Positions 8,963 through 24,735 of a stretch of 64,000 nucleotides of DNA are shown here, one piece after another. The first letter of the stretch is position 1, and every line of letters starts with the position of its first letter. The position numbers were made by a program, and so were the translations under genes. This stretch comes from Thermoanaerobaculia bacterium. Lineage in GTDB: Bacteria > Acidobacteriota > Thermoanaerobaculia > UBA5066 > Gp7-AA6. The stretch covers positions 4,688 through 68,687 of the forward strand of contig DASXTI010000179.1 of the NCBI GenBank assembly GCA_036505535.1, read 5' to 3'. The notes under the pieces are model-generated. The model saw nothing but the letters and a program-made list of their open reading frames with translations, ran no database searches and was not told the DNA's origin.

Positions 8963-9041
8963 TGCGCGTCGATTTTCCCGGCCATGGCTTTTTTTTGCTT
9001 CGACGAGAAAGAGCGCTTCAACAAAGAAGGAGATGAGGGAT

Positions 9042-9290
9042 ATGAAGAAGTTCCTGACCCTGGGTTTTGCGGCCGTGGCGGCGATCGCACTGACGACGGG
9101 CTGCCAGAAGAAGGAAACGACCTCCACCACGACCGAGACCACGACCCAGACGGAGTCCGCTCCCGCCGTCGTGGAGGAGACCGGCACCACGGCGACTACG
9201 ACCACGACAGGCACGGGGACGATGGGCACCGAAACGACGACCACGGCGACCACCACCACGAGCGCCCCGGCGCCCGCCAAGACGCCATAG
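9042..9290 (+). CDS. Small Thr-rich lipoprotein
   Basis: ORF 9033..9290. Signal peptide plus lipobox (LTTGC). AAGGAG at 9027-9032 fits the second ATG (9042, MKKFLTLGF...). The mature part is about half threonine. Own promoter and terminator. Confidence 0.6.
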   Translation: MKKFLTLGFAAVAAIALTTGCQKKETTSTTTETTTQTESAPAVVEETGTTATTTTTGTGTMGTETTTTATTTTSAPAPAKTP

Positions 9291-9316
9291 TCCGGAATCG
9301 TTCGGTCATTTCGTTG

Positions 9317-9345
9317 GGCCCCCGATCGGGGGCCTTTTCTTTCTC
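9317..9345 (+). terminator. Rho-independent terminator
   Basis: Perfect palindrome GGCCCCCGA/TCGGGGGCC (9317-9334) followed by TTTTCTTTCTC. Confidence 0.75.
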
Positions 9346-9385
9346 TCCGATCGGCCGGAGGACGCTGCCGCTACACTGATCCGGA

Positions 9386-10480: not shown

Positions 10481-10511
10481 TGCAAGCCGACCAGCAAAAC
10501 CCGGACGCGTC

Positions 10512-10712
10512 TTACTGTAGCGCGCGACGGAGCCCGCGCAGAAGACGCTCGAGAACGGCGGGCAAGCGCAGGCGCAGGCGGGGCGTAACGAGGCTGGCAA
10601 TCGCGTCCGCGTGATCGCGCGTCCAAGAAGTATCTTCGGGTTGGAGGCCGAGCTCCCCCAGAATTCGACCGTTCTCCTGCGCCAGGCGCCGCAGAGGGTC
10701 GTCGGCGCTCAA
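10512..10712 (-). CDS. Hypothetical small protein (66 aa), possibly translationally coupled to the glycosyltransferase
   Basis: C-terminal part of the otherwise Arg-rich ORF 10512..11585. From TTG 10712 it reads MSADDPLRRLAQENGRILGELGLQPEDTSWTRDHADAIASLVTPRLRLRLPAVLERLLRGLRRALQ. The TTG overlaps the GT stop (TTGA). No homology recognised. Confidence 0.3.
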   Translation of the reverse strand: MSADDPLRRLAQENGRILGELGLQPEDTSWTRDHADAIASLVTPRLRLRLPAVLERLLRGLRRALQ

Positions 10713-11761
10713 GAGAGCCCCGCCCCCGAGAGCAACGCCGCGATGGGCTCGTCCCACGTCAAGGCGGCCGCCCGCCGGCGGCCGGCCTCGCCCATGGCCT
10801 GGAGCGTTTCGATCCTCGGCCACGCCAGGCGCAAGGCCGCTCCCAGAGCCTCGGGCCGCGGAGCCACGACGAGGCCCGTTTCGCCGTCGCGCACGAACTC
10901 GAGCGGGCCGCCCGCGTCTTCGGTCGTCAAGACCGGCTTGCCCGACAGGAACGCCTCGAGCGGCACGTAGCCGAGGTCTTCCCCCGCGGCCGTCACGGCC
11001 ACGATCCGCGCGTTTTCGTAGAGACCGAGCAAAGTCGCGTCGTCGACCGCCTCGATCCAGCGTACCCGCTCCTGCAGACCGAGATCGCGGGCGAGACGCT
11101 TGAGCCGTTCCTCCTCCGGCCCGCGGCCGACGAAGATCGCTCGGGCCTCTGGGGCGTGCGGCAGGGCCTCCAACAACAGGGCGGGGCGCTTCCATTCGTC
11201 GAGCCGTCCGACCCAGAGCACCGAGTCGCCGAAAGGGCCGCTGCGGTACTGTCCGACGAGCGGCGGAGGATGATAGAGCGGCGCGCAGCGGATTCCGTTG
11301 TATCGGTAGAGTCGGGAGGCGACCGTCTGCGAGTTTGCGAACACGCGGCGCGCCTCGGAGAGCCCCACCCGGTCGATCCTCGCGATGACTTCGCGAGTGC
11401 GCCGGTCCTCGGGAGAGGAAGTGAAGTCGCTGTAGAGGGTACCGAGCTGGTCGTAAACCTGGCGGTACTGGTGGATCAGCCAGACGACTTTGTTGGGGTG
11501 CCGGATCGCGTAGCTCGGGAATCGGGTCGCGATGACCGCGTCGACGCGGAAGGCTCCGACCTCCGTCAAGTCGAGGCTCCGCCACGCCAATGCGCCGCGG
11601 ATCAGATCGAAGCGCTCCCGTTCGGCCAGCGGCATCGTCACGAGATCCGCCTCGACCCCTCTCTTGCGGAGCTCTTCGGTCAGTCGGCGGACATGTCGTT
11701 CCGCACCCCCATCGGAGAACGGGGTCTGCACGCCGAGAACCAAGATCCGGTGGGATTTCAA
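10709..11761 (-). CDS. Glycosyltransferase family 4 (GT-B, GT1-type)
   Basis: ORF 10709..12061 trimmed. Homology starts at KSHRILVLGVQTPFSDGGAERHV and includes EDLGYVPLEAFLSGKPV (E-x7-E region). The only start compatible with the upstream gene is TTG 11761, which overlaps its TGA. Confidence 0.8.
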   Translation of the reverse strand: MKSHRILVLGVQTPFSDGGAERHVRRLTEELRKRGVEADLVTMPLAERERFDLIRGALAWRSLDLTEVGAFRVDAVIATRFPSYAIRHPNKVVWLIHQYRQVYDQLGTLYSDFTSSPEDRRTREVIARIDRVGLSEARRVFANSQTVASRLYRYNGIRCAPLYHPPPLVGQYRSGPFGDSVLWVGRLDEWKRPALLLEALPHAPEARAIFVGRGPEEERLKRLARDLGLQERVRWIEAVDDATLLGLYENARIVAVTAAGEDLGYVPLEAFLSGKPVLTTEDAGGPLEFVRDGETGLVVAPRPEALGAALRLAWPRIETLQAMGEAGRRRAAALTWDEPIAALLSGAGLS

Positions 11762-12837
11762 GTCGCGCGGCCGATCAACGCATAGTCCTGGGGCGCGAAG
11801 AGGAGGGCGTTCAACTTCCGCTCGTTCTCCGATCTTTCGTCGAGCCGCTCCGAAGGGGGAAGCGGCGAGCGAAATTCGATGCGGACGTCCGTGAAGCCGG
11901 CCGCTTCTGCGAAAAAGCGCAGTGTCTCGGAGGGCACGGGCCGGAAGTGTGTCGGATCGAGGTAAAACGCCCGCATCGCCGAGATCGAGTCGGAGTTGAT
12001 CGTCTCGGCGATCACGACTCCCCCGGGGGCCAGCACACGCCTGGCCTCCTGGAGGAAGCAAAAGATCTCCACCGGAGTCCAGTGCTCGATGACCTGAAAG
12101 CAGACGACCCCGCCGAGTCGGCCCGGCGGGCGCCGGGTCAGAAGCTCGAGCGCCTCCCCCCGCTCGACGTCGAGTCCTGCTCGACGACAGGCCTCGACGC
12201 TAATCGGGTTGGACTCGATGCCGCTCGCGGCGATGCCCTCGGTTTTCAGGAGCCGGAGAAATTCTCCCCGGCCGCAGCCGACGTCCACGATGGGACCCGG
12301 TAAGTCTCGCAGGAAGTCGACGTAGAAGCGTTGTCCTTTCGCTATCTCTGCCGGACTGCCCCGGAACCGCTCCTCGAAGAGAGCATAGATGCCGGGCGGA
12401 ATCGCCGCTGCAGGGGACGCCGCCGCGGAGGGAAGTGATACCCCCGCCGGTGACCCGGTCTCCGCCAGAGTGAGCCGCGCTTCCTGGACGCCGGCCCGCC
12501 GCTTCAACTCCTCGACGCCTCGCTCCGTATCGGCGCGAAGCCGATCCAAGCCATCGGCGAGGCTCGAGGAGGCGGCAAGCGATAAGGCGTTGAACGACGA
12601 TTGATTCCTCCAGAGAAACCGCAACGCCCGGATCGCCAGACGCTTGACGCGCGCCAGCGGCGCCCCGGATGGTACCGATGGCGTCAGGACGTCCGCCCCC
12701 CGGCGAAGCGAACCACGCGCCTCCGCGGTGGCCGGCTCCCCGCCCTCCGCCGGCCCAACAGGAGCCGCCGCGGTTTCGGCGATCGCCGAGCGGATCTCCT
12801 CCGCGAGGATTTTCTTCCGGTCGTTTGCATGCTCCAT
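11758..12837 (-). CDS. Class I SAM-dependent methyltransferase with an N-terminal coiled-coil-like region
   Basis: ORF 11758..12939 trimmed to ATG 12837 (MEHANDRKK...). SAM motif I IVDVGCGRGEF and LAPGGVVIAE. Upstream of GT4. Confidence 0.8.
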   Translation of the reverse strand: MEHANDRKKILAEEIRSAIAETAAAPVGPAEGGEPATAEARGSLRRGADVLTPSVPSGAPLARVKRLAIRALRFLWRNQSSFNALSLAASSSLADGLDRLRADTERGVEELKRRAGVQEARLTLAETGSPAGVSLPSAAASPAAAIPPGIYALFEERFRGSPAEIAKGQRFYVDFLRDLPGPIVDVGCGRGEFLRLLKTEGIAASGIESNPISVEACRRAGLDVERGEALELLTRRPPGRLGGVVCFQVIEHWTPVEIFCFLQEARRVLAPGGVVIAETINSDSISAMRAFYLDPTHFRPVPSETLRFFAEAAGFTDVRIEFRSPLPPSERLDERSENERKLNALLFAPQDYALIGRAT

Positions 12838-12918
12838 CGCGAATCTCGAGCGAGGATAAAGGCGGCCCGAGAGCGTTGCAACCCAAAGCGCCGTCACGAA
12901 CGGACGCCGAGAGCAGGC

Positions 12919-12927
12919 TGCTAGAAT
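12919..12927 (+). promoter_or_regulatory. Extended -10 box TGcTAGAAT
   Basis: Read directly. Ends 10 nt before ATG 12938, with no SD in between. Confidence 0.45.
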
Positions 12928-12937
12928 CCCGCGCCCC

Positions 12938-14008
12938 ATGAGGTATCTGCTGCTGCTCTCGGCCGCCGCGCTGGCATTTCTCTCCGCCGCCGCGCAGAAC
13001 GCTCCCGTACCGGCACCGGCCGTGCCCGATGCCGCCCTGCTCTATCCCGGGGAGGAGAACTTTCTCGCCCACGTCCGCCAGCTGACCTTCGGCGGACAGA
13101 ACGCCGAGGCGTACTGGTCGGCGGACGGTTCGCGGCTGATCTTTCAAAGCGACGAAGGCAGGCTCCCCTGCGATCAGATCTTCGTCATGAAGGCGGACGG
13201 TTCCGCGCGGCAGCGTATTTCCAACGGGCAGGGCAAGGCGACCTGCTCCTACTTCTTCCCGTCGGGCGATCGCGTGCTCTACTCATCCACCTTCCGTCGC
13301 GGCCCCGAATGTCCGCCCCGGCCCGACCGGTCTTCCGGCTATGTCTGGGCGCTCGACGATTACGACATCTACACCGCGAAGCCCGACGGGAGTGACATTC
13401 GCCCCCTCTTCTTCTCGCCGGCCTACGACGCCGAGGCGACCGTGTCTGCCGACGCAAGGAAGATCGTCTTCACCTCCGCGCGCGATGGAGACCTCGAGAT
13501 CTATTCGATGAACGCCGATGGGTCGAACGTCAAACGGTTGACGCACACGCCGGGTTACGACGGCGGGCCATTTTTCTCCGACGACGGGAAGAAGATCGTC
13601 TATCGGGCCGACCACCCGGAGAAGCCCGAAGACCTGGCGCGCTACCGGGAGAATCTCGCCCGACATACGTACGCGCCGCGGTCGCTCGAGATCCGCGTCA
13701 TGGATGCCGACGGCTCGAACGACCATGCGGTGACGTCGAATGGCGCCGCGAATTTCGCCCCCTTTTTCTTCCCCGGAGGTACCGAGATCATCTTTTCCTC
13801 CAACCTCGCCGACCCGAAAGGACGGGACTTCGACCTCTACAAGATTCGCGGGGACGGAACCCGGTTGACGCGCATCACCTACAGTCCCGCCTTCGACGGG
13901 TTCCCGATGTTCACGCGCGACGGCGGGCGGCTCGTTTTCGCGTCGAATCGCAATGGGAAGGAGCCGCACGAAACCAACATCTTCGTGGCGGATTGGATCG
14001 AGCGCTGA
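12938..14008 (+). CDS. Secreted TolB-like beta-propeller protein (WD40-like/PD40 repeats)
   Basis: ORF 12938..14008. Signal peptide MRYLLLLSAAALAFLSAAAQ. Repeated motifs such as IVFTSARDGDLEIYSMNADGSNVKRLT and LVFASNRNG. Confidence 0.8.
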   Translation: MRYLLLLSAAALAFLSAAAQNAPVPAPAVPDAALLYPGEENFLAHVRQLTFGGQNAEAYWSADGSRLIFQSDEGRLPCDQIFVMKADGSARQRISNGQGKATCSYFFPSGDRVLYSSTFRRGPECPPRPDRSSGYVWALDDYDIYTAKPDGSDIRPLFFSPAYDAEATVSADARKIVFTSARDGDLEIYSMNADGSNVKRLTHTPGYDGGPFFSDDGKKIVYRADHPEKPEDLARYRENLARHTYAPRSLEIRVMDADGSNDHAVTSNGAANFAPFFFPGGTEIIFSSNLADPKGRDFDLYKIRGDGTRLTRITYSPAFDGFPMFTRDGGRLVFASNRNGKEPHETNIFVADWIER

Positions 14009-14034
14009 GCCCGCGGGGCGCAAGAAGCCCGGCC

Positions 14035-15102
14035 CTAAGGACGAGGATGGGGCGTCTCCTCGGCGAACTGGATCAGGGCCAGCACCAGGGCAAGGATGAC
14101 CGGGCCGAGGAAGAGGCCAATCATGCCGAAAGCGGCAAGGCCTCCGAGCACGCCGAAGAACACCGTCAGCGTGCCCAGCGCGGCGCGGCCCGAGACGAGA
14201 AGCGGTCGAACGAAGTTGTCCACCATCCCGACGACGAGCGCCCCCCACGCCGCCATGAAGATGGCCCTTCCGGACGCCCCCTGCGACAGCAGATAGAGCG
14301 CCGCGGGACCCCAGACGAAGGCCGTGCCCCCGACCGGAATGAACGAGGCAATCGCGGCGAGCGCGCCGAACACCACGGGGGAAGGCAGTCTCGTGACTGC
14401 GAACGCTAGGCCGACGGTGATCCCCTGGAGGATCGCGGTCGCCACGCTGCCGAAGACGACCGCACGTGTCACGTCTCCAAGCCGCTTGCCGAGCCGATCC
14501 TTTCGGCCCGGGTCCATCGGCACGAGCGCCTTCAGGCGCCGGGCCATCGCGTCGCCGTCGCGAAAGAAGAAGAACAGGAGGAAGAGCATCAGGATCAAGT
14601 TGCCGACGAAGCCGAGCGCTCCGAGGAGCACGTCCCGCGTGTGCGTGAGCAAGAACTGCACGATGTTCTGCGCCGCATGGACGGCCCAGTCCTGGACCTC
14701 GGCGGCATCGACCGCGAAATGCTTCTGGAGCCACTCCATGGCGGGGCCGATCAACGGTAATCGCTGAATATCCTGGACGCCCCCGACCTGGTACGCGGAT
14801 GCCCTCTGCGCGAGCGCACGCCCCAGGTCGACGGCCTGCCTGGCGAAAGCCACGGCTCCGATGGTCGCAGGCGCGACGATCCCGAGCGTCACCGCGAGGG
14901 TGAGCAGGATCGCGGCCACGCCCTTTCGGCCGCGGACGGCCTTCCGGAGCCGATCGTTGACGGGATACAGGAGGAACGCGATCAGAAACGCCCAGAGAAT
15001 CGGCCCGACGAAGGGTTGAAAGATGCGAAACAGCAGGTAGCCGAGCAGGGCGACGATCGCGAGGTTGAATACCCGCGCGGCGATGCGGTTCTCCTGTGCC
15101 AC
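14035..15102 (-). CDS. AI-2E family transporter (PerM/UPF0118)
   Basis: ORF 14035..15102. Polytopic membrane protein with family-typical segments (ILWAFLIAFLLYP, FIPVGGTAFVWGP, MVDNFVRPLL). Confidence 0.85.
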   Translation of the reverse strand: MAQENRIAARVFNLAIVALLGYLLFRIFQPFVGPILWAFLIAFLLYPVNDRLRKAVRGRKGVAAILLTLAVTLGIVAPATIGAVAFARQAVDLGRALAQRASAYQVGGVQDIQRLPLIGPAMEWLQKHFAVDAAEVQDWAVHAAQNIVQFLLTHTRDVLLGALGFVGNLILMLFLLFFFFRDGDAMARRLKALVPMDPGRKDRLGKRLGDVTRAVVFGSVATAILQGITVGLAFAVTRLPSPVVFGALAAIASFIPVGGTAFVWGPAALYLLSQGASGRAIFMAAWGALVVGMVDNFVRPLLVSGRAALGTLTVFFGVLGGLAAFGMIGLFLGPVILALVLALIQFAEETPHPRP

Positions 15103-15118
15103 GAAAGCCTCGCGGCGG

Positions 15119-15127
15119 ATGCTAGCA
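15119..15127 (-). promoter_or_regulatory. Extended -10 box TGcTAGCAT (minus strand) upstream of the AI-2E transporter gene
   Basis: Plus-strand ATGCTAGCA at 15119-15127. 16 nt upstream of GTG 15102. Confidence 0.4.
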
Positions 15128-15172
15128 GGTTGTCCTAAAGCGAGTGTGACCCACAGCCATCTTTCAGCCGCC

Positions 15173-15181
15173 TGCTAACAT
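15173..15181 (+). promoter_or_regulatory. Extended -10 box TGcTAACAT upstream of queG
   Basis: Read directly. Ends 7 nt before GTG 15189, with no SD. Confidence 0.45.
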
Positions 15182-15188
15182 CGACGTC

Positions 15189-16241
15189 GTGGGCGCGGTC
15201 CCGGATCGTCTCTTTGCGGCGCGAGTCTTCCGCGAGGAAGCGGAGAACGAGGGATTCACCCGCTTCGGCGTCGCGCGCGCCGGAGAAGCGCCGCGGTACG
15301 ACCGGTTCGCGAACTGGATCGCGGAGGGCCGCCACGCCGGCATGCGCTATCTCCAGGCCACGCAGCAAGTGCGGAGAACGCCCGACGCGCTCCTGCGAGG
15401 CGCCCGATCCGTCGTCTGTCTGGCCGCACCGTACTCGGCAGCGCCGTACGTGGCCTCGGACGGGGCGCGCTTTGCGCGTTACGCGCGTGGCACGGACTAT
15501 CACGGCACGCTCCGCAGGCGAGCCCTTCGCGCCGCCGAACGGACGTGGGAGCGGCTCGGCGGGGGATGGGGGTACCGCGTCTGCGTCGACTCGACGCCCC
15601 TCGCGGAGCGCTCCTTTGCGGCCGCGGCGGGCGTCGGATGGATTGGAAAGAACGGGTGCCTGATCGATCCTGTGCAAGGCTCCTATCTTCTTCTCGCCGA
15701 GATCCTCACGGATCTCGATCTACCGGAAGACGAGCCGATCGCCGAGCGGTGCGGCGCCTGTGTACTCTGCCTCGAGGCCTGCCCCACCGAGGCTTTTCTG
15801 TCGCCCGGACTTCTCGACTCGGCACGATGCCTCGCCTACTGGACGATCGAGCATCGAGGGGTGATCCCCGATCCATGGAAGAACGCGCTCGACGACTCGG
15901 TCTTCGGCTGCGACATCTGTCAGGAGGTCTGTCCCTGGAACGCTTCCCTGCCGGCCGTCGCGGCCCAGTCCTCGCAGGCGTTGCCCATGCCTAACGCTTT
16001 GCCGCCCACGCGGGCCGAGATTCTCGCGATGGGCGGAGGGGAGTGGCGCCGCCGCTTCGGAAACACCGCCGTCAATCGAGCCGGCCGTCGCGGGCTGCAG
16101 CGCAACGCCGCCGCATCGGCGGGAGCCCGGAGGGATGCCGCCTGCCTCCCCGTCTTGCAGAATGCTCGCGGCGTTGGCGAGGCGGGCCTGGCGGACGCGG
16201 CGGGTTGGGCCACGGCCCGCCTGCAGACTCTTCCCCTGTAA
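15189..16241 (+). CDS. queG: tRNA epoxyqueuosine(34) reductase
   Basis: ORF 15189..16241. Two 4Fe-4S ferredoxin motifs (CGACVLCLEACP, CDICQEVCPWN), a HEAT-like C-terminus and the family N-terminal domain. Confidence 0.88.
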   Translation: MGAVPDRLFAARVFREEAENEGFTRFGVARAGEAPRYDRFANWIAEGRHAGMRYLQATQQVRRTPDALLRGARSVVCLAAPYSAAPYVASDGARFARYARGTDYHGTLRRRALRAAERTWERLGGGWGYRVCVDSTPLAERSFAAAAGVGWIGKNGCLIDPVQGSYLLLAEILTDLDLPEDEPIAERCGACVLCLEACPTEAFLSPGLLDSARCLAYWTIEHRGVIPDPWKNALDDSVFGCDICQEVCPWNASLPAVAAQSSQALPMPNALPPTRAEILAMGGGEWRRRFGNTAVNRAGRRGLQRNAAASAGARRDAACLPVLQNARGVGEAGLADAAGWATARLQTLPL

Positions 16242-16274
16242 ACTCTCGCTCCGGATTCGAAAGGAAGTCTCCGT

Positions 16275-17549
16275 ATGGATCCCCAAATGCTCCTCTATAT
16301 CTTCGCCTTCCTGCTCTCGCTTGCTTTCTCGGGCTTCTTCGCGGGCTCCGAGACGGCCCTCGTATCGCTCGGCCGGATCGAGCTCCAGCGGATGCGCGAA
16401 AAGGGGGACCGGCGCGGCGCACTGATCCGCATGCTGCGTGCGCATACATCGCGACTCCTCGCGGTCATCCTGATCGGCCAGAACCTATTCATGTCCGCGG
16501 CCTCCGCCTCCGCGACGAACCTGGCCACGGGCTGGTTCGGCCAGAAGTCAGGCTTCTTCGTGGCGGTTCTCTTCTCCACGATCACGCTGTTCGTCTTCGC
16601 CGAGATGATGCCGAAGTCCATCGGAGCCGCGTCTCCGGCCGCGGTCTCGCGGGCCGTCGTGATTCCGTTGTCCTGGATCATGAAGGTCCTCTCTCCCGTC
16701 GCCGAGGTCTGCGTGCGGTTGACCAGCCGCGTCCTCCGCGCCTTCGGCGTGCCCGAGGTGAGGCCGGCGTTGACCGAAGAGGAGTTAAAGAGCGTCTTCA
16801 ATCTGGGCGCGGACGAAGGGGTGATCCACCGCGAGGAGAGACAGCTCCTCCACAAGGTTCTCGAGTTCGGAGACAAGACCGTTCGGGACATCATGGTCCC
16901 GCGCACCAAGATTGTGGCCCTTCCCGAGACGGCGAGCTTCGCCGACGTGCGGGCGCTCCTTCACGAGCACAAGCTCTCCCGCCTCCCCGTTTACCGTGGC
17001 ACGCTGGACAACGTCGTGGGAGTTCTTCACGCCAAGGACCTGTTTGACCTCTCCGACGCGGAGGAGCAGGCCTTCGAGCTCGGCAAGTACTGTGATCCGC
17101 CCTTCCTGGTTCCGGAGTTCAAGCGCGCCGAAGATCTCTTCCGCGAGATGCGCCGCCGCCGGACGCACATGACGATCGTCGTGGACGAGCATGGAGGGAC
17201 GGCCGGCCTCGTGACGATCGAGGACGTCATCGAGGAGCTTCTGGGCCAGATCCAGGACGAGTACGACGAGGAGATGCCGGGCTTCGAGCCGGCCGGCGAG
17301 CGCGCCTACATGCTCGACGGCAGCTTTCGGTTGGACGACCTCGAGGAGCAGTTCGGGTTCCATCTGCCGCGGGACGAAGCCGAGACGATCGCGGGACATC
17401 TCATGCTCCGGTTCGGTCGGATTCCGCGCAAGGGAGAACGCTGGAAGGGACGCTTCGCCGACTTCGTGATCGAGGAAGCCACGCCGACCGCCATCAAGAG
17501 AGTGAAGATGACGCTGCCCGTGGCTTCCGAAAAGAGAGAGACCCCCTGA
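16275..17549 (+). CDS. Hemolysin-family/CNNM transporter (DUF21 membrane domain, CBS pair, CorC_HlyC domain)
   Basis: ORF 16275..17549. GSETALVSL, the CBS region (VRDIMVPRTKIVAL...), and HMTIVVDEHGGTAGLVTIEDVIEELLG. Confidence 0.88.
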   Translation: MDPQMLLYIFAFLLSLAFSGFFAGSETALVSLGRIELQRMREKGDRRGALIRMLRAHTSRLLAVILIGQNLFMSAASASATNLATGWFGQKSGFFVAVLFSTITLFVFAEMMPKSIGAASPAAVSRAVVIPLSWIMKVLSPVAEVCVRLTSRVLRAFGVPEVRPALTEEELKSVFNLGADEGVIHREERQLLHKVLEFGDKTVRDIMVPRTKIVALPETASFADVRALLHEHKLSRLPVYRGTLDNVVGVLHAKDLFDLSDAEEQAFELGKYCDPPFLVPEFKRAEDLFREMRRRRTHMTIVVDEHGGTAGLVTIEDVIEELLGQIQDEYDEEMPGFEPAGERAYMLDGSFRLDDLEEQFGFHLPRDEAETIAGHLMLRFGRIPRKGERWKGRFADFVIEEATPTAIKRVKMTLPVASEKRETP

Positions 17550-18550
17550 GCGGGGAGCGCCGCGTCACGCTGATCCGCGGCGATGGAATCGGACCGGAAG
17601 TCGCCGACGCCGTTCTCACGATCTTGGAGTCGGCGGGCGCACCTCTCTCCTTCGAGGAAGTCGTCGTCGGGCAGGAGGCCGAGAAGACCGAGGGAAATCC
17701 CTTGCCTGCGCGGGCGCTCGATTCGATCCGGAACAACCGCGTCGCCCTGAAGGGTCCCGTCGGAACGCCGGTCGGAAAGGGATTCTCCTCCGTCAACGTC
17801 CGGCTGCGTCAGACGCTCGAGCTCTACGCCAATCTCCGGCCCGTCAAGAACCTGCCGGCCGTCGACAGCCGATTCCAAAATGTGGACCTCGTCGTCGTGC
17901 GGGAGAACACCGAGGATCTTTACAGCGGCCTCGAACACATCGTGGTGCCCGGAGTCGTCGAGTCATTGAAGATCATCACGGCGAAGGCCTCGACCCGCAT
18001 CGCGCGGTACGCCTTCGACTATGCGCGAAAAAATGGCCGGCGCCGCGTCACGGCGGTCCACAAGGCAAACATCATGAAGCTCTCCGACGGTCTGTTCCTC
18101 GACTGCTTTCGCCAGGTGGCCGAGGATTACCCGGACATCACCGCCGACGATCGAATCGTGGACGCGGCCTGTATGCGCCTGGTCATGAGCCCCGACGCCT
18201 TCGACGTCCTCCTCCTGGAGAACCTCTATGGCGACATCGTGTCCGATCTGGCGGCCGGGTTAGTGGGCGGGCTCGGGCTCGTTCCGGGCGCCAACCTCGG
18301 GTCGGACGCGGCGATCTTCGAGGCCGTTCATGGAACCGCTCCCGACATCGCGGGACAGGATCGCGCCAACCCGACGGCGCTGCTGATGTCCGCGATCCTC
18401 ATGCTGCGTCACCTCGACCTCCCCGAGCACGCCGACTCGGTCGAGAAGGCGTTGCTCTCGACCCTTCGGGCGGGCATCAAGACCCCCGATATTGGCGGAA
18501 CGGCGGGCACGCGGGAGTTCGCGAGAGCGGTGGCGGAGAGGCTGAGATGA
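17546..18550 (+). CDS. Isocitrate/isopropylmalate dehydrogenase family protein, most like NAD-dependent isocitrate dehydrogenase
   Basis: ORF 17624..18550, plus upstream in-frame homology (RRVTLIRGDGIGPEVADAVLTIL) that has no ATG/GTG/TTG. The only plausible start is CTG 17546, which overlaps the upstream TGA. Motifs RENTEDLYSG and NLYGDIVSDLAAGLVGGLG. Confidence 0.85.
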   Translation: MSGERRVTLIRGDGIGPEVADAVLTILESAGAPLSFEEVVVGQEAEKTEGNPLPARALDSIRNNRVALKGPVGTPVGKGFSSVNVRLRQTLELYANLRPVKNLPAVDSRFQNVDLVVVRENTEDLYSGLEHIVVPGVVESLKIITAKASTRIARYAFDYARKNGRRRVTAVHKANIMKLSDGLFLDCFRQVAEDYPDITADDRIVDAACMRLVMSPDAFDVLLLENLYGDIVSDLAAGLVGGLGLVPGANLGSDAAIFEAVHGTAPDIAGQDRANPTALLMSAILMLRHLDLPEHADSVEKALLSTLRAGIKTPDIGGTAGTREFARAVAERLR

Positions 18551-18637
18551 TTGCCGATTGGCGATTTCCGATTGACGATTGAGGGCTCGTCTCGGTGATG
18601 GCTTCAATCGACAATCATCAATCGGCAATCGCCAATT
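18549..18637. repeat. Heptad-repeat hairpin (5 x GATTGNN, loop, 5 x NNCAATC) filling the gap between convergent stops
   Basis: 18549-18583 reads GATTGCC GATTGGC GATTTCC GATTGAC GATTGAG. 18603-18637 reads TTCAATC GACAATC ATCAATC GGCAATC GCCAATT. Confidence 0.85.
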
Positions 18638-18638
18638 C

Positions 18639-18932
18639 CTAGTACAGCTCGACCTTCGGGATCATCAGCGCCCGCACGGCACAGTTGCCCCGGACGCGAG
18701 CCTGGCAGCCGAGGCGGCGGCCATCGCCCATCTCGTAGGCCAACTCCTGCGGGTTGATCGGCGAGAGGTTCTCCGAGCCGACGATGACCTCGATCCGGCA
18801 CGTCGAGCAAGTTCCATTCCCACCGCAGACGTGACTGATCTTCACGCCCAAATCGAGAGCAGCCCGTAGGACTGTCGTGCCCTCCTCGACGGAGCCCGCC
18901 TTCCCTTCGTTGACGAAGACGATCGTGGGCAT
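18639..18932 (-). CDS. 2Fe-2S ferredoxin (plant/adrenodoxin-like fold)
   Basis: C-terminal 97 aa of ORF 18639..19283 from ATG 18932: MPTIVFVNEGK...CGGNGTCSTCRIEV...LGCQARV. The upstream ORF extension overlaps trmB antisense. Confidence 0.8.
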   Translation of the reverse strand: MPTIVFVNEGKAGSVEEGTTVLRAALDLGVKISHVCGGNGTCSTCRIEVIVGSENLSPINPQELAYEMGDGRRLGCQARVRGNCAVRALMIPKVELY

Positions 18933-18944
18933 GAGAATTGCGGT

Positions 18945-19571
18945 TTGCGAAATCAGGGTAGCACAGGGGTCCAAGCGGGCCGGTGGCCCGGCAGTCCGGA
19001 CGAGGAGCTCTGGTTCGGGCGTTCGCTCGAGCCAGAGGACCTCTTCGGCCGCCGAGCGCCCCTGGAAGTCGAGATCGGCAGCGGCAAAGCGCGGTTCTTG
19101 ATCCAAGCAGGTCGGGCGAATCCGGCGCACGACTTCGTCGGCATCGAACGCTCGCTCGCCTACTACCGGACCTGTCGGGATCGCGTGACTCGCGCGAGCC
19201 TCCCCAACGTCCGGATTCTGCGCGCCGACGGTCGGACCTTCGTCGAGACGGCGCTCGCTCCGCGGTCGGTTCACGCGTTGCACATCTACTTTCCGGACCC
19301 CTGGCCCAAGAAGAGGCAGAAGAAGCGTCGCTTAATCGACGGCGTCTTTCTGGAACTCGTGGCTTCCCGGCTGGAGGCGGGAGGGCTTCTTCGCATCGCC
19401 ACGGACCATCCCGACTATGGCTCGGGCCTCGGTTCGCTCTTACAGACCGTGCCCGCCTTCGAGCGTCTCGTCTGGGATGCTCTCCCCGCGCCACCCACGA
19501 CCCACTACGAGATCAAGTACCGCGCAGAAGGAAGACCGATATGGAGGTATCTGCTGAGAAAAGGTTCCTAG
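18945..19571 (+). CDS. trmB: tRNA (guanine46-N7)-methyltransferase
   Basis: ORF 18945..19571 (TTG start). Motifs LEVEIGSGKARFL, LHIYFPDPWPKKRQKKRRL and ATDHPDY. Confidence 0.85.
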   Translation: MRNQGSTGVQAGRWPGSPDEELWFGRSLEPEDLFGRRAPLEVEIGSGKARFLIQAGRANPAHDFVGIERSLAYYRTCRDRVTRASLPNVRILRADGRTFVETALAPRSVHALHIYFPDPWPKKRQKKRRLIDGVFLELVASRLEAGGLLRIATDHPDYGSGLGSLLQTVPAFERLVWDALPAPPTTHYEIKYRAEGRPIWRYLLRKGS

Positions 19572-19630
19572 TTTCTGGTTACTGGTTTTCTGGTTCCGTC
19601 GACGTCGACCAGAAACGAGAAACCTGAAAC
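19571..19630. repeat. Heptad-repeat hairpin (TTNCTGG units, GTCGACGTCGAC centre, CNNGAAA units)
   Basis: Left arm TTTCTGG TTACTGG TTTTCTGG. Right arm CCAGAAA CGAGAAA CCTGAAA. Lies between the convergent trmB and pgsA stops. Confidence 0.8.
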
Positions 19631-19645
19631 CCGCTACCATCGGCT

Positions 19646-20209
19646 CTATGGTTCCGCCGCCGGAGGCGGCCCGGAAATTGCGATTTGCCGGAGGAAACGC
19701 ACAAAGTACTCCGTCCCCGAGACGAGCGCGACGCCGACGACCAGCCAGAGTAGGACCCGGCCGGGAAGCGCGAACGCCTCATGGCGCAGCGCCAGGATCA
19801 GTAGAGAAACGGCTGCAATCTGCGTGAACATCTTCGCCTTGCCCCACCCCGAGGCCGGAATCAGGATGCCTCGCCCCGACGCGATCGATCGTAATCCCGA
19901 CACGGCAAACTCGCGGCCGACGACCACAACCACCATCCATGCCGGCGCCAGACCCAGTTCCACGAGCGAGATGAAGGCCGCGGAGATCAGCAACTTGTCA
20001 GCGATCGGATCGAGCAGGGTCCCCAGGGTGGTGATCTCGCCGCGCCTCCGGGCGAGCCAACCGTCCAGGAAGTCGGTGGCGACGGCGGTGAGAAAAATCC
20101 CGAGCCCGACCGTCTCGCGTCCGTCGAACTTCGTCAAGAGCACGACGACGAGAAACGGGACCAGAAAGATCCGCAGCAGAGTCAGAGCGTTGGGGAGGTT
20201 TATCGTCAC
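19646..20209 (-). CDS. pgsA: CDP-diacylglycerol--glycerol-3-phosphate 3-phosphatidyltransferase
   Basis: ORF 19646..20209. CDP-alcohol phosphotransferase motif DFLDGWLARRRGEITTLGTLLDPIADK. Confidence 0.9.
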   Translation of the reverse strand: MTINLPNALTLLRIFLVPFLVVVLLTKFDGRETVGLGIFLTAVATDFLDGWLARRRGEITTLGTLLDPIADKLLISAAFISLVELGLAPAWMVVVVVGREFAVSGLRSIASGRGILIPASGWGKAKMFTQIAAVSLLILALRHEAFALPGRVLLWLVVGVALVSGTEYFVRFLRQIAISGPPPAAEP

Positions 20210-20249
20210 GGGATCGTCTGCTCAAATATACGGGATTCCAAGACCGCGC

Positions 20250-20278
20250 CTCGAGACTCCTCCGTCTCGAGACTCCTC
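20250..20278. promoter_or_regulatory. 13-nt direct repeat CTCGAGACTCCTC x2 (16-nt spacing) in the pgsA/deacetylase divergent region; possible operator
   Basis: Copies at 20250-20262 and 20266-20278 are identical. Followed by CATAAT (20282-20287) and GTG 20294. Confidence 0.3.
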
Positions 20279-20293
20279 GCGCATAATAGTCGG

Positions 20294-21682
20294 GTGAACG
20301 TTCCCTGCCCGACCCACTCCGGCCGGCGCGCCCATAAGAGCTGTCACTTCTGCCGCAGGGCGATCTGCCGCCTGTGCGAAGTGCGGATGCGGGGACATCT
20401 CTACTGTTCCACGCGTTGCGCGCGTGATGCGAGCCGGCACGCGGTCTGGCGCCGCATCCAGGGGGAACTCGTTCGGCCCATCCCCGCGCGCGCCGCGGTC
20501 TTTCTGGTGGCGCTCGCCGCGTCGGCTCCCGTCATTCTCGCTCTTCGGACCGTCGCCCATCTCGATCGTCTCAATACCCCTTCTCCGCTGGCTCGTCCCC
20601 GGCGCGAGACGCCGAGCGCGCGCCTCGAATCTGCGACGGAGGCCGCCGGCGGACTCCGCCTGGATGGAACCGCTTCGGAGGGAAGCGCCGTCTTTCTCTT
20701 CGCGGGTGGACACTTCGTGGCGGCCGCTCCGGTCGCCGACGGGCGTTTTCACTTCGACGGGGTCAGGGAGAAGGGACCCTTCCGCGTCGGCGCCATGCCG
20801 CTCTCGACCGAGCTGCTTCCGACTCCCGTTGCTCGACCCGTACGCCCGATAGTCCCTCCCTCCGTGTCTGCCCCGCCCCAGCCGACCGGGCCGCCCGCCC
20901 GCGCCGCGGCGGCTCAACCGGCACTATTTCCGAGGTGGCCCGCGGCGCCGGACTTGACGCAGGGGCCGGCGGATCGCCGGGACGTTCTCGTCTCCTTCGA
21001 CGCGGGATCCTCGGACCGCGGCGCTACCGAGATTCTCGACGCGCTGGCGGCCCGAGGAATCCGTACGACGATCTTCGTGACGGGGGAGTTCGTCCGCCGT
21101 TATCCGATGATCGTGCGCCGCATCGCGGCGGAGGGTCACGAAGTCGGCAATCACACCGACACTCACCCTCATCTGACGACCTACGGCCCCGACGGCCGCC
21201 AGATCACCCGCCCCGGAGTCGACCGAGCGTTCCTCACCGGCGAGCTCACTCGCACCGCGCGCCTCTACCGCGAAGCCACGGGGCGCGCCATGGCGCCCCT
21301 TTGGCGTGCCCCTTTCGGAGAGCACAATGCCGAAATCCGCCGGTGGGCGGCCGTGCAGGGTTACTGGCACGTCGGCTGGACGGGAGGCCGCAGCGGCCTC
21401 GACGGACTCGATTGGATCTCGGATCCTCTATCGCGCTCGTTCCAGCCGGCCGAGCGGCTCCTGGCTCGGCTGGTTCACCATGCCGAGAACGGAGGCATCG
21501 TGCTGCTCCATCTCGGGAGCGACCGGGAGGAGCCCGTCGCTTCGAGGATCGGCGTTCTCTTCGACGGCCTGAAGGGCCGCGGCTTCCGCTTCGCCCTCGC
21601 CTCGGAGTTCCTCGAACGGGAGGGCTACGACGAGGCGAAGCTGGCCGTCTTCCGCGACTCCGCCGCGGGCGTCGCGCATTGA
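20294..21682 (+). CDS. Membrane-anchored polysaccharide deacetylase (NodB homology domain) with an N-terminal B-box-type zinc finger
   Basis: ORF 20294..21682. N-terminal Cys/His cluster CPTHSGRRAHKSCHFCRRAICRLCEVRMRGHLYCSTRC, one TM segment, a Pro-rich linker, then NodB motifs (SFDAGSSD, HEVGNHTDTH, WRAPFGE, VLLHLG). Confidence 0.8.
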   Translation: MNVPCPTHSGRRAHKSCHFCRRAICRLCEVRMRGHLYCSTRCARDASRHAVWRRIQGELVRPIPARAAVFLVALAASAPVILALRTVAHLDRLNTPSPLARPRRETPSARLESATEAAGGLRLDGTASEGSAVFLFAGGHFVAAAPVADGRFHFDGVREKGPFRVGAMPLSTELLPTPVARPVRPIVPPSVSAPPQPTGPPARAAAAQPALFPRWPAAPDLTQGPADRRDVLVSFDAGSSDRGATEILDALAARGIRTTIFVTGEFVRRYPMIVRRIAAEGHEVGNHTDTHPHLTTYGPDGRQITRPGVDRAFLTGELTRTARLYREATGRAMAPLWRAPFGEHNAEIRRWAAVQGYWHVGWTGGRSGLDGLDWISDPLSRSFQPAERLLARLVHHAENGGIVLLHLGSDREEPVASRIGVLFDGLKGRGFRFALASEFLEREGYDEAKLAVFRDSAAGVAH

Positions 21683-23097
21683 CGATCGCCTTCGGCACCG
21701 ACGGGTGGCGCGGAGTCATCGCCGACGACTGCACGTTCTCCGAGATTCGCCGGATTGCCGCGGCGGTGGCGCGCTTCTACGTCGCGGACCCGGGACCCGG
21801 AGACCGGCACCGGATCGTGGTCGGCTATGACCCCCGTTTCTTCTCTCCCGAATTCGCCCGCGCGAGCGCCGAGGTCTTCGCCGAAGCGGGGATCGACGTT
21901 CTCCTGGCGGACCGTCCGATCCCGACGCCGGCCGTTTCGTTCCACGTCCGACGGCTCGGCTTGAAGGGGGGCGTCTCCATTACGGCCAGCCACAACCCCG
22001 GCCACTACAATGGCTTCAAGGTCAAGGCCCACTTCGGCGGCAGCGCTCCTCCGGAGACCTATCGGTCGATTGCGGGCGAGGTCGATCGTCGGCTTCCCCG
22101 CGCCGACCGCGCCGGAAGGATCGAGACCGAGGATCTGATCACGCCCTACCGGAATCGCTTATCCGAGCTGGTCGATCTCGCGGCGATTCGCGCGTCGCGA
22201 CTCTCGGTCCTCTCCGACGCGATGCACGGCGCGGCGGGCTCTTTGGTCGCGGAGCTGCTCTCGGGTGGCACGCTTCGTATCGTTGCCTTCCGCACCGAGC
22301 GCGACCCGCTCTTCGGGGGGGTCCATCCCGAGCCGATCGCCAAGAACCTCGCGGCATCCTCCGAACGCGTGCGTGCCGGGAGTCTCGATCTCGCCCTGGC
22401 CCAGGACGGTGATGCCGATCGTCTCGGCGTGCTGGGCCACGACGGGCGCTTCGTATCGCCTCACCAGATTCTGGCGCTGCTCCTGCTCCACGTCTTCCGC
22501 AAACGGGGCCTCCGAGGAGGCATCGCCAAGACGTTCTCGACCTCGTTCCAGGTCGATCGCATCGCGGCGCGCCTCGGTGTCCCGCTCATCGAGACCGGAA
22601 TCGGATTCAAGTACGTCGCCGAGCTGATGAACCGAGGGGAGGCCGTTGCGGGGGGCGAGGAGAGCGGCGGTTATGCTTTTTCCTTCCATCTGCCCGAACG
22701 GGACGGAGTCCTCTCGGCCCTCCTGCTGGTGGAGAGTCTGGCGAAGACCGGCAGAAATCTCGAGGAGGCGCTCGAAGAGCTCGCCTCCGAGTTCGGCCGG
22801 TTCGACTACGGGCGGCGCGACGTGTATCTGCCGACCGATGCCGCCGAGCGCTATCTCCGACAGAGCAACGCCTCCCCCCCCTTCTCCTTCGCCGGTGAAA
22901 GGGTCACGGCGGTGCAGGACCGCGACGGGGTCAAGTACGTCTTCGGGGACCGAGGCTGGCTCCTCCAACGCTTGTCCGGAACCGAACCGATGGCGCGCCT
23001 TTACTGCGAGCACGAGGCGGGAGAGAAGATGATGGCGATCCTGGACGAAGCCGAGCGGCGGCTTCGCGAGTTTGTCCACTCCGGGCGTATGCTCTAG
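21679..23097 (+). CDS. Phosphoglucomutase/phosphomannomutase family protein
   Basis: C-terminal 472 aa of ORF 20935..23097. Begins TIAFGTDGWRG, with active-site TASHNPGHYNGFK and the Mg site DGDADR. TTG 21679 overlaps the upstream TGA. Confidence 0.85.
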   Translation: MTIAFGTDGWRGVIADDCTFSEIRRIAAAVARFYVADPGPGDRHRIVVGYDPRFFSPEFARASAEVFAEAGIDVLLADRPIPTPAVSFHVRRLGLKGGVSITASHNPGHYNGFKVKAHFGGSAPPETYRSIAGEVDRRLPRADRAGRIETEDLITPYRNRLSELVDLAAIRASRLSVLSDAMHGAAGSLVAELLSGGTLRIVAFRTERDPLFGGVHPEPIAKNLAASSERVRAGSLDLALAQDGDADRLGVLGHDGRFVSPHQILALLLLHVFRKRGLRGGIAKTFSTSFQVDRIAARLGVPLIETGIGFKYVAELMNRGEAVAGGEESGGYAFSFHLPERDGVLSALLLVESLAKTGRNLEEALEELASEFGRFDYGRRDVYLPTDAAERYLRQSNASPPFSFAGERVTAVQDRDGVKYVFGDRGWLLQRLSGTEPMARLYCEHEAGEKMMAILDEAERRLREFVHSGRML

Positions 23098-23135
23098 CAG
23101 GCTGCTGGCCGATTGCGAGCCTCCGGAGGCGTGGC

Positions 23136-24632
23136 ATGAACATCCTGCTCCTCTCCATGCCCGACTCGTTCGAGCACATGCCGACCGTCGCGGTTCGCAT
23201 GCCCAACGGCGCCCTGACTTCGCTCGCCGGCAACGTCGATCCGCATCATCGAGTGGCCGTCGCGGACCTCGTGCTCGTCCAGCGGCGAGTTCGGGAAACC
23301 GTCGAGAGGCTGGTTCGGGAGCTCTCCCCCGACCTCGTCGGCCTGTCGGTCATGACCTTTCAGCGCCCGACGGCCTGGAAGATCCTCGACCTCGTGCGGG
23401 CGCTGCGGCCGGGCGTCCCGATCGTCGTCGGCGGCTATGACCCGAGTCTCGATCCCGAGGCCTATCGCGACATCCCCTCGGGCGCCGCCGACTTTCTCGT
23501 CCGCGGAGAGGGTGAGCTTCCCTTCCGCGAGCTGCTCCGTGCACTCGAGTCCGGCGGCGGTTTCGATGGGATCGCGGGGGTCTCCTTCCGCGTCGGGGAC
23601 GGCTTCCACCACAATCCACCGCGGCCGGCCAGCCGCCTCGAGGAGGGCGATATTCGCCTCCCGAATCGTGGCGCGCGGGTGCTCGCGGGATACACGATGC
23701 TCGGCCGGCAAGTCGACGTCGTCGAGACCTCCCGCGGGTGCACCTACGACTGCAGCTTCTGCTCGATCATCGAGATGCGCGGGCGCAACTTCCACACCTA
23801 CGATTTCGAGCGCGTGCTCGCGGACATCCGGGATGCCCGGTCACACGGCGCGCGCTCGATCTTCGTCGTCGACGACAACATCACGCTCGACGTCCGGCGG
23901 TTCGAGGCCCTTTGCCGCACCCTCGTGGAAGCGGGGCTGAACGACATCGACTACACGGTCCAGGCGATGACCTCCGCCATCGCGAATGCGCCGGAGACGC
24001 TCGCCCCGCGCATGCGGGAAGCGGGTTTCCGCTACGTCTTCCTCGGCATCGAGAATATTCTGGAGGACGATCTCGGATTCCTGCGCGCGGCCGCCAAGAA
24101 CACCCGCCGCGAACAGGGGAAGAGCCTGGGCAATGCGACCGAAAAAGCGATCGACCGCCTCCACCGAAACGGCATGTACGTCGTCGGGGGTTTGATCGTC
24201 GGCAATCCCGACGACACCGCCGAGTCGATCGAGGCGAACCTCGACTTCGCGCGACGCCATGTCGACTGGCCCTACGTCCAGCATCCCACCCCCTACCCCC
24301 GAACTCCGATGACGCGAGAGCTCCAGGAGCGCGGGCTCATATCCCATTCTCGGATCGAGGAGTACGACGGAACGACCGCGGTCGTGCGCACCGCGAGCCT
24401 CTCCCCCGAGGAGATCGAGTTCCGGCGTTGGAGGAGGGATCGCTGGATGAAGCTCCGGCACATGCCGGTCGCCTTTCGGCACGATCCGATCTTTGTGCTT
24501 CGCCATGCGCCGCAGATGCTGGCGCACACGTTTCGCGGAACGACCTTCAAGTCTCTTCTGGGTCTCGAGCCGGAGTCGCGGACCTTCGAGCGGTACCGGA
24601 GGATTCGGGCGAGGGAAAGGGAGTATCTATAG
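23136..24632 (+). CDS. B12-binding domain-containing radical SAM protein
   Basis: ORF 23136..24632. N-terminal cobalamin-binding-like domain, then the CxxxCxxC motif (SRGCTYDCSFCS). Confidence 0.85.
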   Translation: MNILLLSMPDSFEHMPTVAVRMPNGALTSLAGNVDPHHRVAVADLVLVQRRVRETVERLVRELSPDLVGLSVMTFQRPTAWKILDLVRALRPGVPIVVGGYDPSLDPEAYRDIPSGAADFLVRGEGELPFRELLRALESGGGFDGIAGVSFRVGDGFHHNPPRPASRLEEGDIRLPNRGARVLAGYTMLGRQVDVVETSRGCTYDCSFCSIIEMRGRNFHTYDFERVLADIRDARSHGARSIFVVDDNITLDVRRFEALCRTLVEAGLNDIDYTVQAMTSAIANAPETLAPRMREAGFRYVFLGIENILEDDLGFLRAAAKNTRREQGKSLGNATEKAIDRLHRNGMYVVGGLIVGNPDDTAESIEANLDFARRHVDWPYVQHPTPYPRTPMTRELQERGLISHSRIEEYDGTTAVVRTASLSPEEIEFRRWRRDRWMKLRHMPVAFRHDPIFVLRHAPQMLAHTFRGTTFKSLLGLEPESRTFERYRRIRAREREYL

Positions 24633-24635
24633 GTT

Positions 24636-24725
24636 AGGAGGAGTGATTTGTGATTTGTGATTGGGGCGGAAAAGTCTTCTTCGCGCTGATCACCAATCAC
24701 CAATCTCCAATCACAAATTCCTCCT
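24636..24725. repeat. Heptad-repeat hairpin (GATTTGT/GATTGGG units versus ACCAATC/TCCAATC/ACAAATT units, flanked by AGGAGG...CCTCCT)
   Basis: Left arm 24636-24666, right arm 24688-24725. Lies between convergent stops 24630-32 and 24736-38. Confidence 0.8.
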
Positions 24726-24735
24726 AGCGCCCGTC

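Follow-up and report, generated by a model that had tools for sequence, protein, structure and literature searches.

The 64-kb stretch of DNA analysed here, which we call the window, comes from a metagenome-assembled genome (MAG) of a soil bacterium of the Thermoanaerobaculia (Acidobacteriota), a taxon given by proteins to which its TrmB and DnaJ are 100% identical, and carries between its genes a series of hairpins whose arms are made of tandem 7-nt repeats. The exemplar, E1, occupies positions 18549-18637 and fills the gap between two convergent stop codons, those of an Iso_dh-family gene on the + strand (TGA at 18548-50; the gene ends at 18550) and of a Fer2 ferredoxin gene on the - strand (CTA at 18639-41, which is TAG on that strand; the gene ends at 18639). 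Its 5′ arm consists of five GATTGNN units at 18549-18583 (GATTGCC GATTGGC GATTTCC GATTGAC GATTGAG), its 3′ arm of five NNCAATC units at 18603-18637 (TTCAATC GACAATC ATCAATC GGCAATC GCCAATT), and a loop of 19 nt (18584-18602) separates the two. Units, loop and stop codons all read exactly as in an earlier note on this DNA, which had presented the locus as the exemplar of a recurrent class. When RNA folds were compared with those of dinucleotide shuffles, E1 scored z = -4.5 and -5.5 on the two strands. The register-shifted pairing that the earlier note expected from the 7-nt register is visible: the + strand fold contains a 7-nt bulge and its minimum free energy structure accounts for only 0.11 of the ensemble.

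Six further elements of the same design lie in the window, and no strand is assigned to any of the seven. Three of the six separate convergent genes, as E1 does: E2 (19571-19631; unit GTTTCTG in one arm and CAGAAAC in the other, z = -3.2) lies between trmB (+, ending at 19571) and a CDP-alcohol phosphatidyltransferase gene (-, ending at 19646); E3 (24636-24725; units GTGATTT/GTGATTG, extended by AGGAGGAG...CTCCTCCT, z = -7.2) between a B12-binding radical SAM gene (+, ending at 24632) and a TPR/AIM24 gene (-, ending at 24736); and E7 (50039-50114; GATTGNN units, z = -6.9), in which three different units are mirrored within 23 consecutive base pairs, between an IMP dehydrogenase gene (+, ending at 50035) and an MgsA-like AAA+ gene (-, ending at 50110). 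The other three follow one gene and precede the next on the same strand. E4 (33970-34060; GATTGAA/GATTGAG units, z = -3.3, or -3.1 in sense) occupies the dnaJ|prmA spacer on the - strand, with the GTG of prmA (33963) 6 nt past it. E5 (35197-35280; a perfect ATTGCCG repeat of 6.4 copies on the + strand, z = -4.1, or -4.4 in sense) occupies the dnaK|dnaJ spacer, also on the - strand, with the dnaK stop codon 3 nt before it and the dnaJ ATG (35189) 7 nt after. E6 (45601-45668; AGTCGGT against ACCGACT, the 3′ arm being longer than the 5′ arm, z = -6.2) overlaps the end of a peptidase M23 gene (+, ending at 45609), with secA (45738) 70 nt further on. The earlier note had all copies at gene 3′ ends; those that it placed at 33971, 35197 and 45601 lie between co-directional genes and hence also on the 5′ side of the next gene.

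Tandem Repeats Finder (TRF) reports facing period-7 pairs at 18549/18605, 24643/24689, 33970/34038, 35197/35256 and 50039/50084 and a single arm each at 19608 and 45627, whose shorter partners were recovered by local alignment; recurrence at the six main loci beyond the exemplar was thus confirmed by TRF together with the partner search. The window contains 15 period-7 TRF rows against 3.0 in forty Markov-1 simulations, and 5 inverted period-7 pairs (7 with the more sensitive partner search) against 0.03. All seven main elements fold better than their dinucleotide shuffles, with z from -3.2 to -7.2, and all are richer in AT than their surroundings, at 38-57% GC in a window of 65.9% GC, the latter as the earlier note had said. 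Every element lies outside the called genes or overlaps only a stop codon. The density is 7 in 64 kb, approximately one per seven genes, and the units are of four kinds: GATTGNN, GTTTCTG, AGTCGGT and GTGATTT.

To see how far the design extends, 185,579 species genomes were scanned for exact matches to three GATTGNN units, 5-35 nt, and three NNCAATC units. This yielded at least 118 stretches, and the counts derived from them hold among the matches listed; the survey set of 951 kb comprises the window and 118 genome loci. Since these loci were picked by a GATTG pattern in forward orientation, only the elements in their flanks, the window itself and paired scans with forward and reversed patterns are unbiased, and 66 elements outside the query choice (locus flanks plus window) form what we call the unselected set. 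Period 7 dominates the survey set, with 499 TRF rows against 66 of period 6 and 95 of period 8. Period-7 arrays of the same unit form 184 inverted pairs and 4 direct ones; another 133 arrays stand alone, 76 of them inside long open reading frames (ORFs), and where solo arrays adjoin a stop codon there is only a weak tendency for the sense strand to be G-rich (16:7, p = 0.09). An arm has a median of 5 units. The main helix contains a median of 33 paired bases (interquartile range 29-38) at a median folding energy of -46 kcal/mol, the arms are 90% complementary to each other, and the loops, of 0 to 76 nt, are unrelated in sequence. The variable NN positions are mirrored between arms with an identity of 0.766, against 0.776 when unit order is shuffled, a comparison that carries little information because most arms are dominated by one unit.

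The elements start a median of 2 nt from the stop codon, 57% of them within ±10 nt, and from the element to the next in-frame start codon the median is at least 37 nt. By gene orientation, 101 junctions are co-directional, 37 convergent and 23 apparently divergent; outside the window these orientations come from a crude heuristic based on ORFs and GC content at third codon positions, and some will be wrong. At least five T in the 8 nt after the stem were found for 3.3% of the elements. The claim that the copies lack a U-tract accordingly holds for 97% of the class; it does not hold for E5, which in the dnaK sense is followed by UUUUUUCU.

Carriers belong to at least 10 phyla: Acidobacteriota, Planctomycetota, Chloroflexota, Gemmatimonadota, Verrucomicrobiota, Desulfobacterota, Bacteroidota, Armatimonadota, Kiritimatiellota and Proteobacteria. 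Record titles in the scan name Armatimonadetes, Pontiella, Roseobacter and Stenotrophomonas among others, and many copies are present in Oscillochloris sp. ZM17-4 (Chloroflexota). The unselected set alone contains dozens of units, e.g. AAGTATG, GATTTTG, AGGGGAC, GGAGATT, GCAGTTG, GGGAATC and GGGTTCA, and GATTGCA, AGGGGAC, TGAATGT and AGGAGGC units occur within the single Oscillochloris genome. In IMG/VR, whose contigs may include host DNA, the GATTG core gave 13 sites, TGAGT 9, GTTAG 6 and GTATG 0, while GATTG at period 8 gave 2. Because permuted cores are about as frequent as GATTG, the class is defined by architecture rather than by a motif; it is recurrent, as had been claimed, in that sense. 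On the same frequencies GATTG was rejected as a uniquely conserved protein site, and the occurrence of GATTG across phyla is not evidence for one conserved binding protein. The repeat-reading protein entertained in the earlier note, if a single one, sits badly with genomes that contain many unrelated units.

The arms have a near-absolute polarity: G-rich sequence comes first, in the 5′ arm, and C-rich sequence second, in the 3′ arm. The element being a palindrome, this rule is valid on both strands. In the unselected set G exceeds C in the 5′ arm in 58 elements against 7 (p = 4e-11), in 39 against 7 when GATT-type units are left out, and in 51 against 7 when one element is counted per locus and unit. 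Paired scans of IMG/VR with three unrelated cores gave 13, 6 and 9 forward matches and 0, 0 and 0 reversed ones, that is 28:0, with approximately 20 of the 28 forward sites independent after removal of reverse-complement and duplicate contigs. The rule is not absolute. In the metagenome collection the reversed GATTG pattern had 36 matches, 7 of which are merely two adjacent forward hairpins, leaving approximately 29 genuine reversed elements; these are sporadic, since the other elements on their contigs are forward by 14 to 3. Thermodynamics cannot account for the polarity, because the duplex is identical either way. It needs a kinetic, enzymatic or mutational cause, and we record it as unexplained.

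E4 and E5 both lie in a heat-shock cluster (window 31348-37113, - strand) with the conserved order dnaK-dnaJ-prmA-rsmE-class IV aminotransferase; in relatives, hrcA and grpE precede dnaK. Three successive spacers of this cluster carry heptamer elements, namely E5 in dnaK|dnaJ, E4 in dnaJ|prmA and a solo array after rsmE. As E5 and E4 end 7 and 6 nt from the starts of dnaJ and prmA, and no sigma-70-like site was found in either spacer, they must presumably be transcribed through for dnaJ and prmA to be expressed. A second such context is found in a Chloroflexaceae MAG (Prado088, JALONX010000048.1; locus L030, 56-4411), where 26 tRNA genes lie on one strand and most spacers longer than 60 nt contain hairpins with heptamer arms of the AAGTATG and GATTTTG types.

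At two further loci the earlier note had seen the design more weakly, and neither is a full member. The solo array after rsmE (32401-32449, - strand) has approximately seven units without an inverted partner, is G-rich in the sense (-) strand, starts at the stop codon of the rsmE-like gene (32441) and folds with z = -1.6. The short relative at 6297-6373 (+ strand) has only two units per arm (GTTGAAG GTCGAAG ... CTTTCGA CCTTCGAC) followed by TTTTTT, folds with z = -2.7 and looks like a conventional terminator of the + strand gene ending at 6301. Separately, a 40-nt TTC/CTC-rich polypyrimidine tract (window 50114-50153) directly adjoins E7. Being part of the 3′ end of the MgsA-like gene (- strand), it would encode a Lys/Glu-rich tail. 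The window also contains, on the - strand at 56117-63943, one ORF of 2608 codons whose GC content at third codon positions resembles that of coding sequence.

Close strains differ in unit number at some of the elements. E1 is invariant in three other metagenome contigs. In L001, a near-identical strain, E2 is longer by one AGAAACC unit, and two contigs end inside this element. E6 has 6 units in the window and 4 in loci L189 and L190, with identical flanks. Length variation of the slippage type, which had been anticipated from the tandem structure, is thus observed at E2 and E6. Several of the Logan short-read contigs from the window's population (L001-L003, L191) end exactly inside heptamer arrays, which suggests that short-read assemblies are broken by the elements. 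The copies of one genome have loops and flanks that bear no relation to each other, which argues for growth in place rather than transposition.

Over larger distances, whole elements come and go. Four relatives at approximately 73% TrmB identity keep the gene order over 20 kb, and at their Iso_dh|Fer2 and trmB|CDP-OH junctions the genes overlap, lie 10-18 bp apart or have unrelated sequence between them. One of the related Thermoanaerobaculia (L125) carries a heptamer hairpin of its own at another convergent junction. The dnaK|dnaJ junction behaves differently. Among the five lineages compared there, four (the window, L192, L193 and L194) have a heptamer-arm hairpin, with differing units and lengths: GATTGCC-type in the window (z = -4.4), GAGTCTT-type in L192 (z = -2.0) and GATTGGT/GATTGAA-type in L193 and L194 (z = -2.6 and -3.3). 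L195 has no heptamer hairpin at this junction (z = +0.5). At dnaJ|prmA, one relative keeps only the G-rich 5′ array and another mostly the complementary 3′ array.

At Iso_dh|Fer2, two related Thermoanaerobaculia (L124, 9634-9699; L125, 9522-9693) carry a different palindromic repeat that contains GGGATCCCTCG. The phosphoglucomutase-family and TPR/AIM24 genes adjoin in all four relatives; the window has two genes between them (22159-24632), one being the B12-binding radical SAM gene, and E3 sits at the new junction. A soil metagenome contig (Ga0074046_10020366; L139, 3150-3430) has three head-to-tail units of approximately 115 bp, each holding one complete GATTG hairpin with an identical loop. 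A 41-kb viral contig (IMGVR_UViG_3300037424_002340) has three GATTGTT hairpin copies (L126, 1306-1375; L129, 1199-1268; L135, 12673-12742) which, unlike chromosomal copies elsewhere, agree in their loop and have left flanks that are alike and T-rich, those of two copies being identical.

The earlier note had called the class apparently undescribed, which was too strong. Rehm et al. 2015 (PLoS One, PMC4692102) reported approximately 185 GGGAATC heptamer arrays per Xanthomonas genome, including 70-75 inverted pairs near stop codons whose length varies between species, and pursued them as G-quadruplexes; their paper contains no analysis of hairpins, polarity or wider distribution. Shared features are tandem 7-nt arms on opposite strands, convergent and intergenic, with the G-rich array first, unit numbers that differ between close relatives, and a position nearer the upstream stop codon (in Xanthomonas 28 nt on average) than the next gene (160 nt in Xanthomonas). 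In the window, too, opposite-strand arrays of the same unit lie close together, and the surveyed elements typically lie within approximately 50 bp of the upstream stop codon and farther from the next start. The unit sequence and the phylum differ, and the window units have no G3 tracts, so that the G-quadruplex reading is not applicable here. A Stenotrophomonas locus (L094) contains GGGAATC hairpins together with one GATTG hairpin. Paired opposite-strand tandem repeats of 7-9 nt were also described in Geobacter metallireducens (Aklujkar et al. 2009, PMC2700814). They have 3-5 tandem copies (MTYCTGA x5, GTTGCTYN x4, TCTCCGTS x3) at variable spacing, and some lie between operon genes (proB-proA), as window copies do; in contrast to the window elements, their periods include 8 and 9 besides 7 and some are tied to insertions of IS elements. 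Their authors interpreted them, without a test, as sites for IHF/HU-type proteins (PMC2700814).

The TAACTGA repeats of Beggiatoaceae were rejected as relatives, being direct repeats upstream of start codons. Cyanobacterial STRR sequences and other heptanucleotide simple sequence repeats (SSRs), in accounts attributed to Mazel et al. 1990 and Mrazek et al. 2007, are reportedly intergenic and over-represented among long SSRs. They resemble the window elements in being intergenic 7-nt tandem units of variable copy number, and differ in being mostly solo direct arrays, with few pairs in Nostoc; the TAACTGA and TTTTGAA arrays among them are placed upstream of start codons, unlike the elements studied here. 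The window elements have the head-to-tail 7-nt units in at least three copies, and the copy number varying between close strains, that mark the STRR type.

As previously supposed, the elements fall into none of the better-known repeat families. Like the REP/BIME sequences and REPINs of proteobacteria, they are abundant and imperfect palindromes that lie at the 3′ ends of genes and in operon spacers. REP sequences, however, measure 20-40 bp, have a GTAG/CGTC tag and a conserved sequence specific to each family, are associated with RAYT transposases and do not have arms of tandem repeats; here there is no conserved sequence, the arms begin with GATTG, GTTTC, GTGAT or AGTCG, and GTAG occurs only inside the E6 unit. 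MITEs (miniature transposable elements with inverted repeats) are ruled out by unrelated loops, the absence of a conserved interior and the absence of flanking direct repeats, and CRISPR arrays (repeats of 24-48 nt with unique spacers) by contiguous 7-nt units and an inverted second array. Rfam gave no match at the gathering threshold for the whole window on either strand. A full-text literature search combining inverted or palindromic tandem repeats with heptamers found none, and a large survey of hairpins across genomes makes no mention of repeat-built arms. The window elements therefore belong to a kind that has been noticed before but has gone without a name, a survey or a test. Three findings, namely the wide range of phyla, the general closeness to stop codons and the G-first polarity, appear to be new in the searchable literature. 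Taken together, the observation in the earlier note was confirmed and its interpretation partly supported.

The explanation we prefer, and in which we place about even confidence, is that the elements are heptanucleotide-repeat palindromes, REP-like and generated by slippage, that would form RNA stem-loops in 3′ untranslated regions (UTRs) and intercistronic spacers and are not canonical U-tract terminators. Each consists of approximately 3-7 tandem G-rich heptamers in the 5′ arm, an unrelated loop and complementary units in the 3′ arm, and begins no more than a few bases from a stop codon or from the 3′ end of a tRNA. Units would be added and removed by replication slippage, and the two arms of the palindrome would stay complementary by templating one another. 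Loops of more than approximately 4 nt escape mismatch repair, and stable re-annealing may require a unit of at least approximately 7 nt; on both points we follow a proposal on heptamer slippage that reportedly goes back to Mrazek. Transcribed within a 3′ UTR or intercistronic spacer, the element would fold into an imperfect RNA stem of approximately 30 bp, which could act as a barrier to 3′-to-5′ decay and as a partial, non-canonical block to transcription. The predicted outcome is twofold: the stem would set the 3′ end and the relative stability of the upstream cistron (e.g. of dnaK against dnaJ), and between convergent genes it would provide insulation and separate their transcripts.

Of all this, the architecture, the placement at stop codons, the gain and loss of units between strains, the turnover between species and the persistence at one operon junction were observed. 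A role as 3′-end or intercistronic stabiliser is plausible. By analogy, REP/BIME sequences, which are transcribed, would be the nearest functional counterpart: in E. coli operons their hairpins stabilise the mRNA upstream, acting at its 3′ end, and attenuate transcription. In Bacillus subtilis, the stability of the transcript is influenced by a stem-loop that separates dnaK from dnaJ.

Several results weigh against such a role. The heptamer hairpin is absent from the Iso_dh|Fer2 and trmB|CDP-OH junctions in the four relatives at approximately 73% identity, and from these two orthologous junctions it follows that most copies are dispensable. Between co-directional genes the 9 nt after the stem contain 2.25 T in the sense and in the antisense direction alike, and mismatches read in sense orientation are of the G.U type 60 times and of the A.C type 71 times, so that the elements bear no sense-strand signature. 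RNA stems of 30 bp or more are expected to be RNase III substrates, and such a stem could destabilise its transcript. Finally, the explanation does not account for the G-first polarity or for the preference for period 7.

The main rival shares this account of origin and differs from the preferred explanation only on function. It holds that the elements are a neutral or selfish by-product of mutation, in which slippage expands heptamer SSRs, template switching turns them into quasi-palindromes, and the products, functionless, are tolerated only after stop codons. The absence of elements at two orthologous junctions and presence at another, the polymorphism of unit number between strains, the missing sense-strand signature and the many arbitrary units, with other G/T-rich cores about as common as GATTG, are all consistent with this possibility. 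So is a stop-seeding test, in which the array period continued weakly into the stop codon, the phase matching in 44% of cases against a baseline of 24%, a modest rise. Four results speak for more than mutation: the dnaK|dnaJ hairpin was kept in four of the five lineages despite differing units; inverted pairs outnumber direct ones by 184 to 4 among the matches listed; the strong G-first polarity would need an extra mutational bias; and the density is high, with 7 elements in 64 kb. We consider a purely neutral origin possible, though on the whole unlikely.

The polarity and the 7-nt period also admit a bolder conclusion, which we put forward as a speculation of rather low probability: together they may mark a dedicated process that is widely conserved in at least 10 phyla, and that either reads the elements as a post-stop signal or writes the repeats directionally. 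As a signal, one possibility, the element would be read co-transcriptionally by a factor-dependent mechanism and would act in termination, RNA processing or protection from Rho. Phyla that have received little study would then possess an alternative to the U-tract terminator that has gone unrecognised. In the second case, a directional mechanism of repeat writing or expansion would build both arms towards the centre.

Improbable, in our view, is that the elements act at the level of DNA, as sites for nucleoid or architectural proteins (IHF/HU-like, or gyrase as for REP/BIME) or as cruciforms at gene-end supercoils. The division of the unit into five conserved and two variable positions and the strand-symmetric mismatch spectrum would fit a DNA-binding protein, and a dimeric one would impose one fixed orientation of the arms. 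For paired tandem repeats in Geobacter, binding by a global regulator or by IHF/HU was indeed proposed (Aklujkar et al. 2009, PMC2700814). Against this stand the several unrelated units per genome (as in Oscillochloris, and four kinds in the window) and a polarity that follows a general rule of G over C rather than a motif, holding at 39:7 for non-GATT units; no candidate protein was identified. Cruciform extrusion, for its part, would be hindered by the positive supercoiling that is to be expected where two genes converge.

A non-autonomous mobile element of the MITE or REPIN kind, spread by a transposase such as RAYT, would explain the high copy number and dispersal, the shared order of variant units in some copies of the same genome (e.g. 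GATTGTA second from the outer end in Oscillochloris) and the IMG/VR contig whose three copies share loop and flank. We regard it as very unlikely, given that nearly every copy has a loop and flanks unrelated to those of the others, with no target-site duplication visible, that arm length varies by whole units, that the GTAG/CGTC tag is missing and that dozens of unrelated units exist.

Canonical Rho-independent terminators, possibly bidirectional, also consist of a hairpin directly downstream of a stop codon, and the elements occupy 4-5 of the window's 9 convergent junctions. T/U runs follow E5 in sense and the 6297 element. A further point in favour is that sites resembling canonical terminators are not enriched in the window, with 21 found against 12.8 expected and 12 against 13.0, such matches in the two 20-kb stretches scanned being not clearly above shuffled expectation. 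However, a U tract follows only 3% of the elements among the matches listed, and the sense and antisense directions do not differ in this; their stems, of approximately 33 bp, are about three times as long as those of terminators and AT-richer than the genome; and copies are found inside operons, 6-7 nt before essential downstream cistrons, and between the tRNA genes of one array. Efficient termination inside an operon or tRNA array would silence the genes downstream, so that the terminator role proposed earlier is unlikely in its efficient form, and we give the canonical terminator hardly any weight. The only strong canonical terminator-like site in 5001-25000 and 31001-51000 lies at 9316-9335 (+ strand) and reads GGGCCCCCGATCGGGGGCC followed by TTTTCTTTC.

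G-quadruplexes, the reading given for Xanthomonas and Nostoc heptamers, can practically be dismissed: some members elsewhere have G runs (GATTGGG/GGGGATT, GGGAATC, AGGGGAC) and a quadruplex was formed in vitro (Rehm et al. 2015, PMC4692102), but the window units (GATTGCC, GATTGAA, GTTTCTG, AGTCGGT, GTGATTT) have no G3 tracts, and with an inverted partner present a duplex stem is favoured.

A visible part of this genome's intergenic DNA consists of heptamer hairpins. How transcript 3′ ends are formed is poorly understood in most of the carrier groups, and U-tract terminators look scarce in the window. The polarity rule provides a simple test that separates RNA-level, DNA-level and mutational explanations, and the elements could serve as markers for strain typing. 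If they do shape mRNA 3′ ends or the stability of cistrons, they would represent a common regulatory device that has been missed by terminator predictors and by Rfam. Because units come and go by slippage, they would then also allow expression to change rapidly and in a strain-specific manner.

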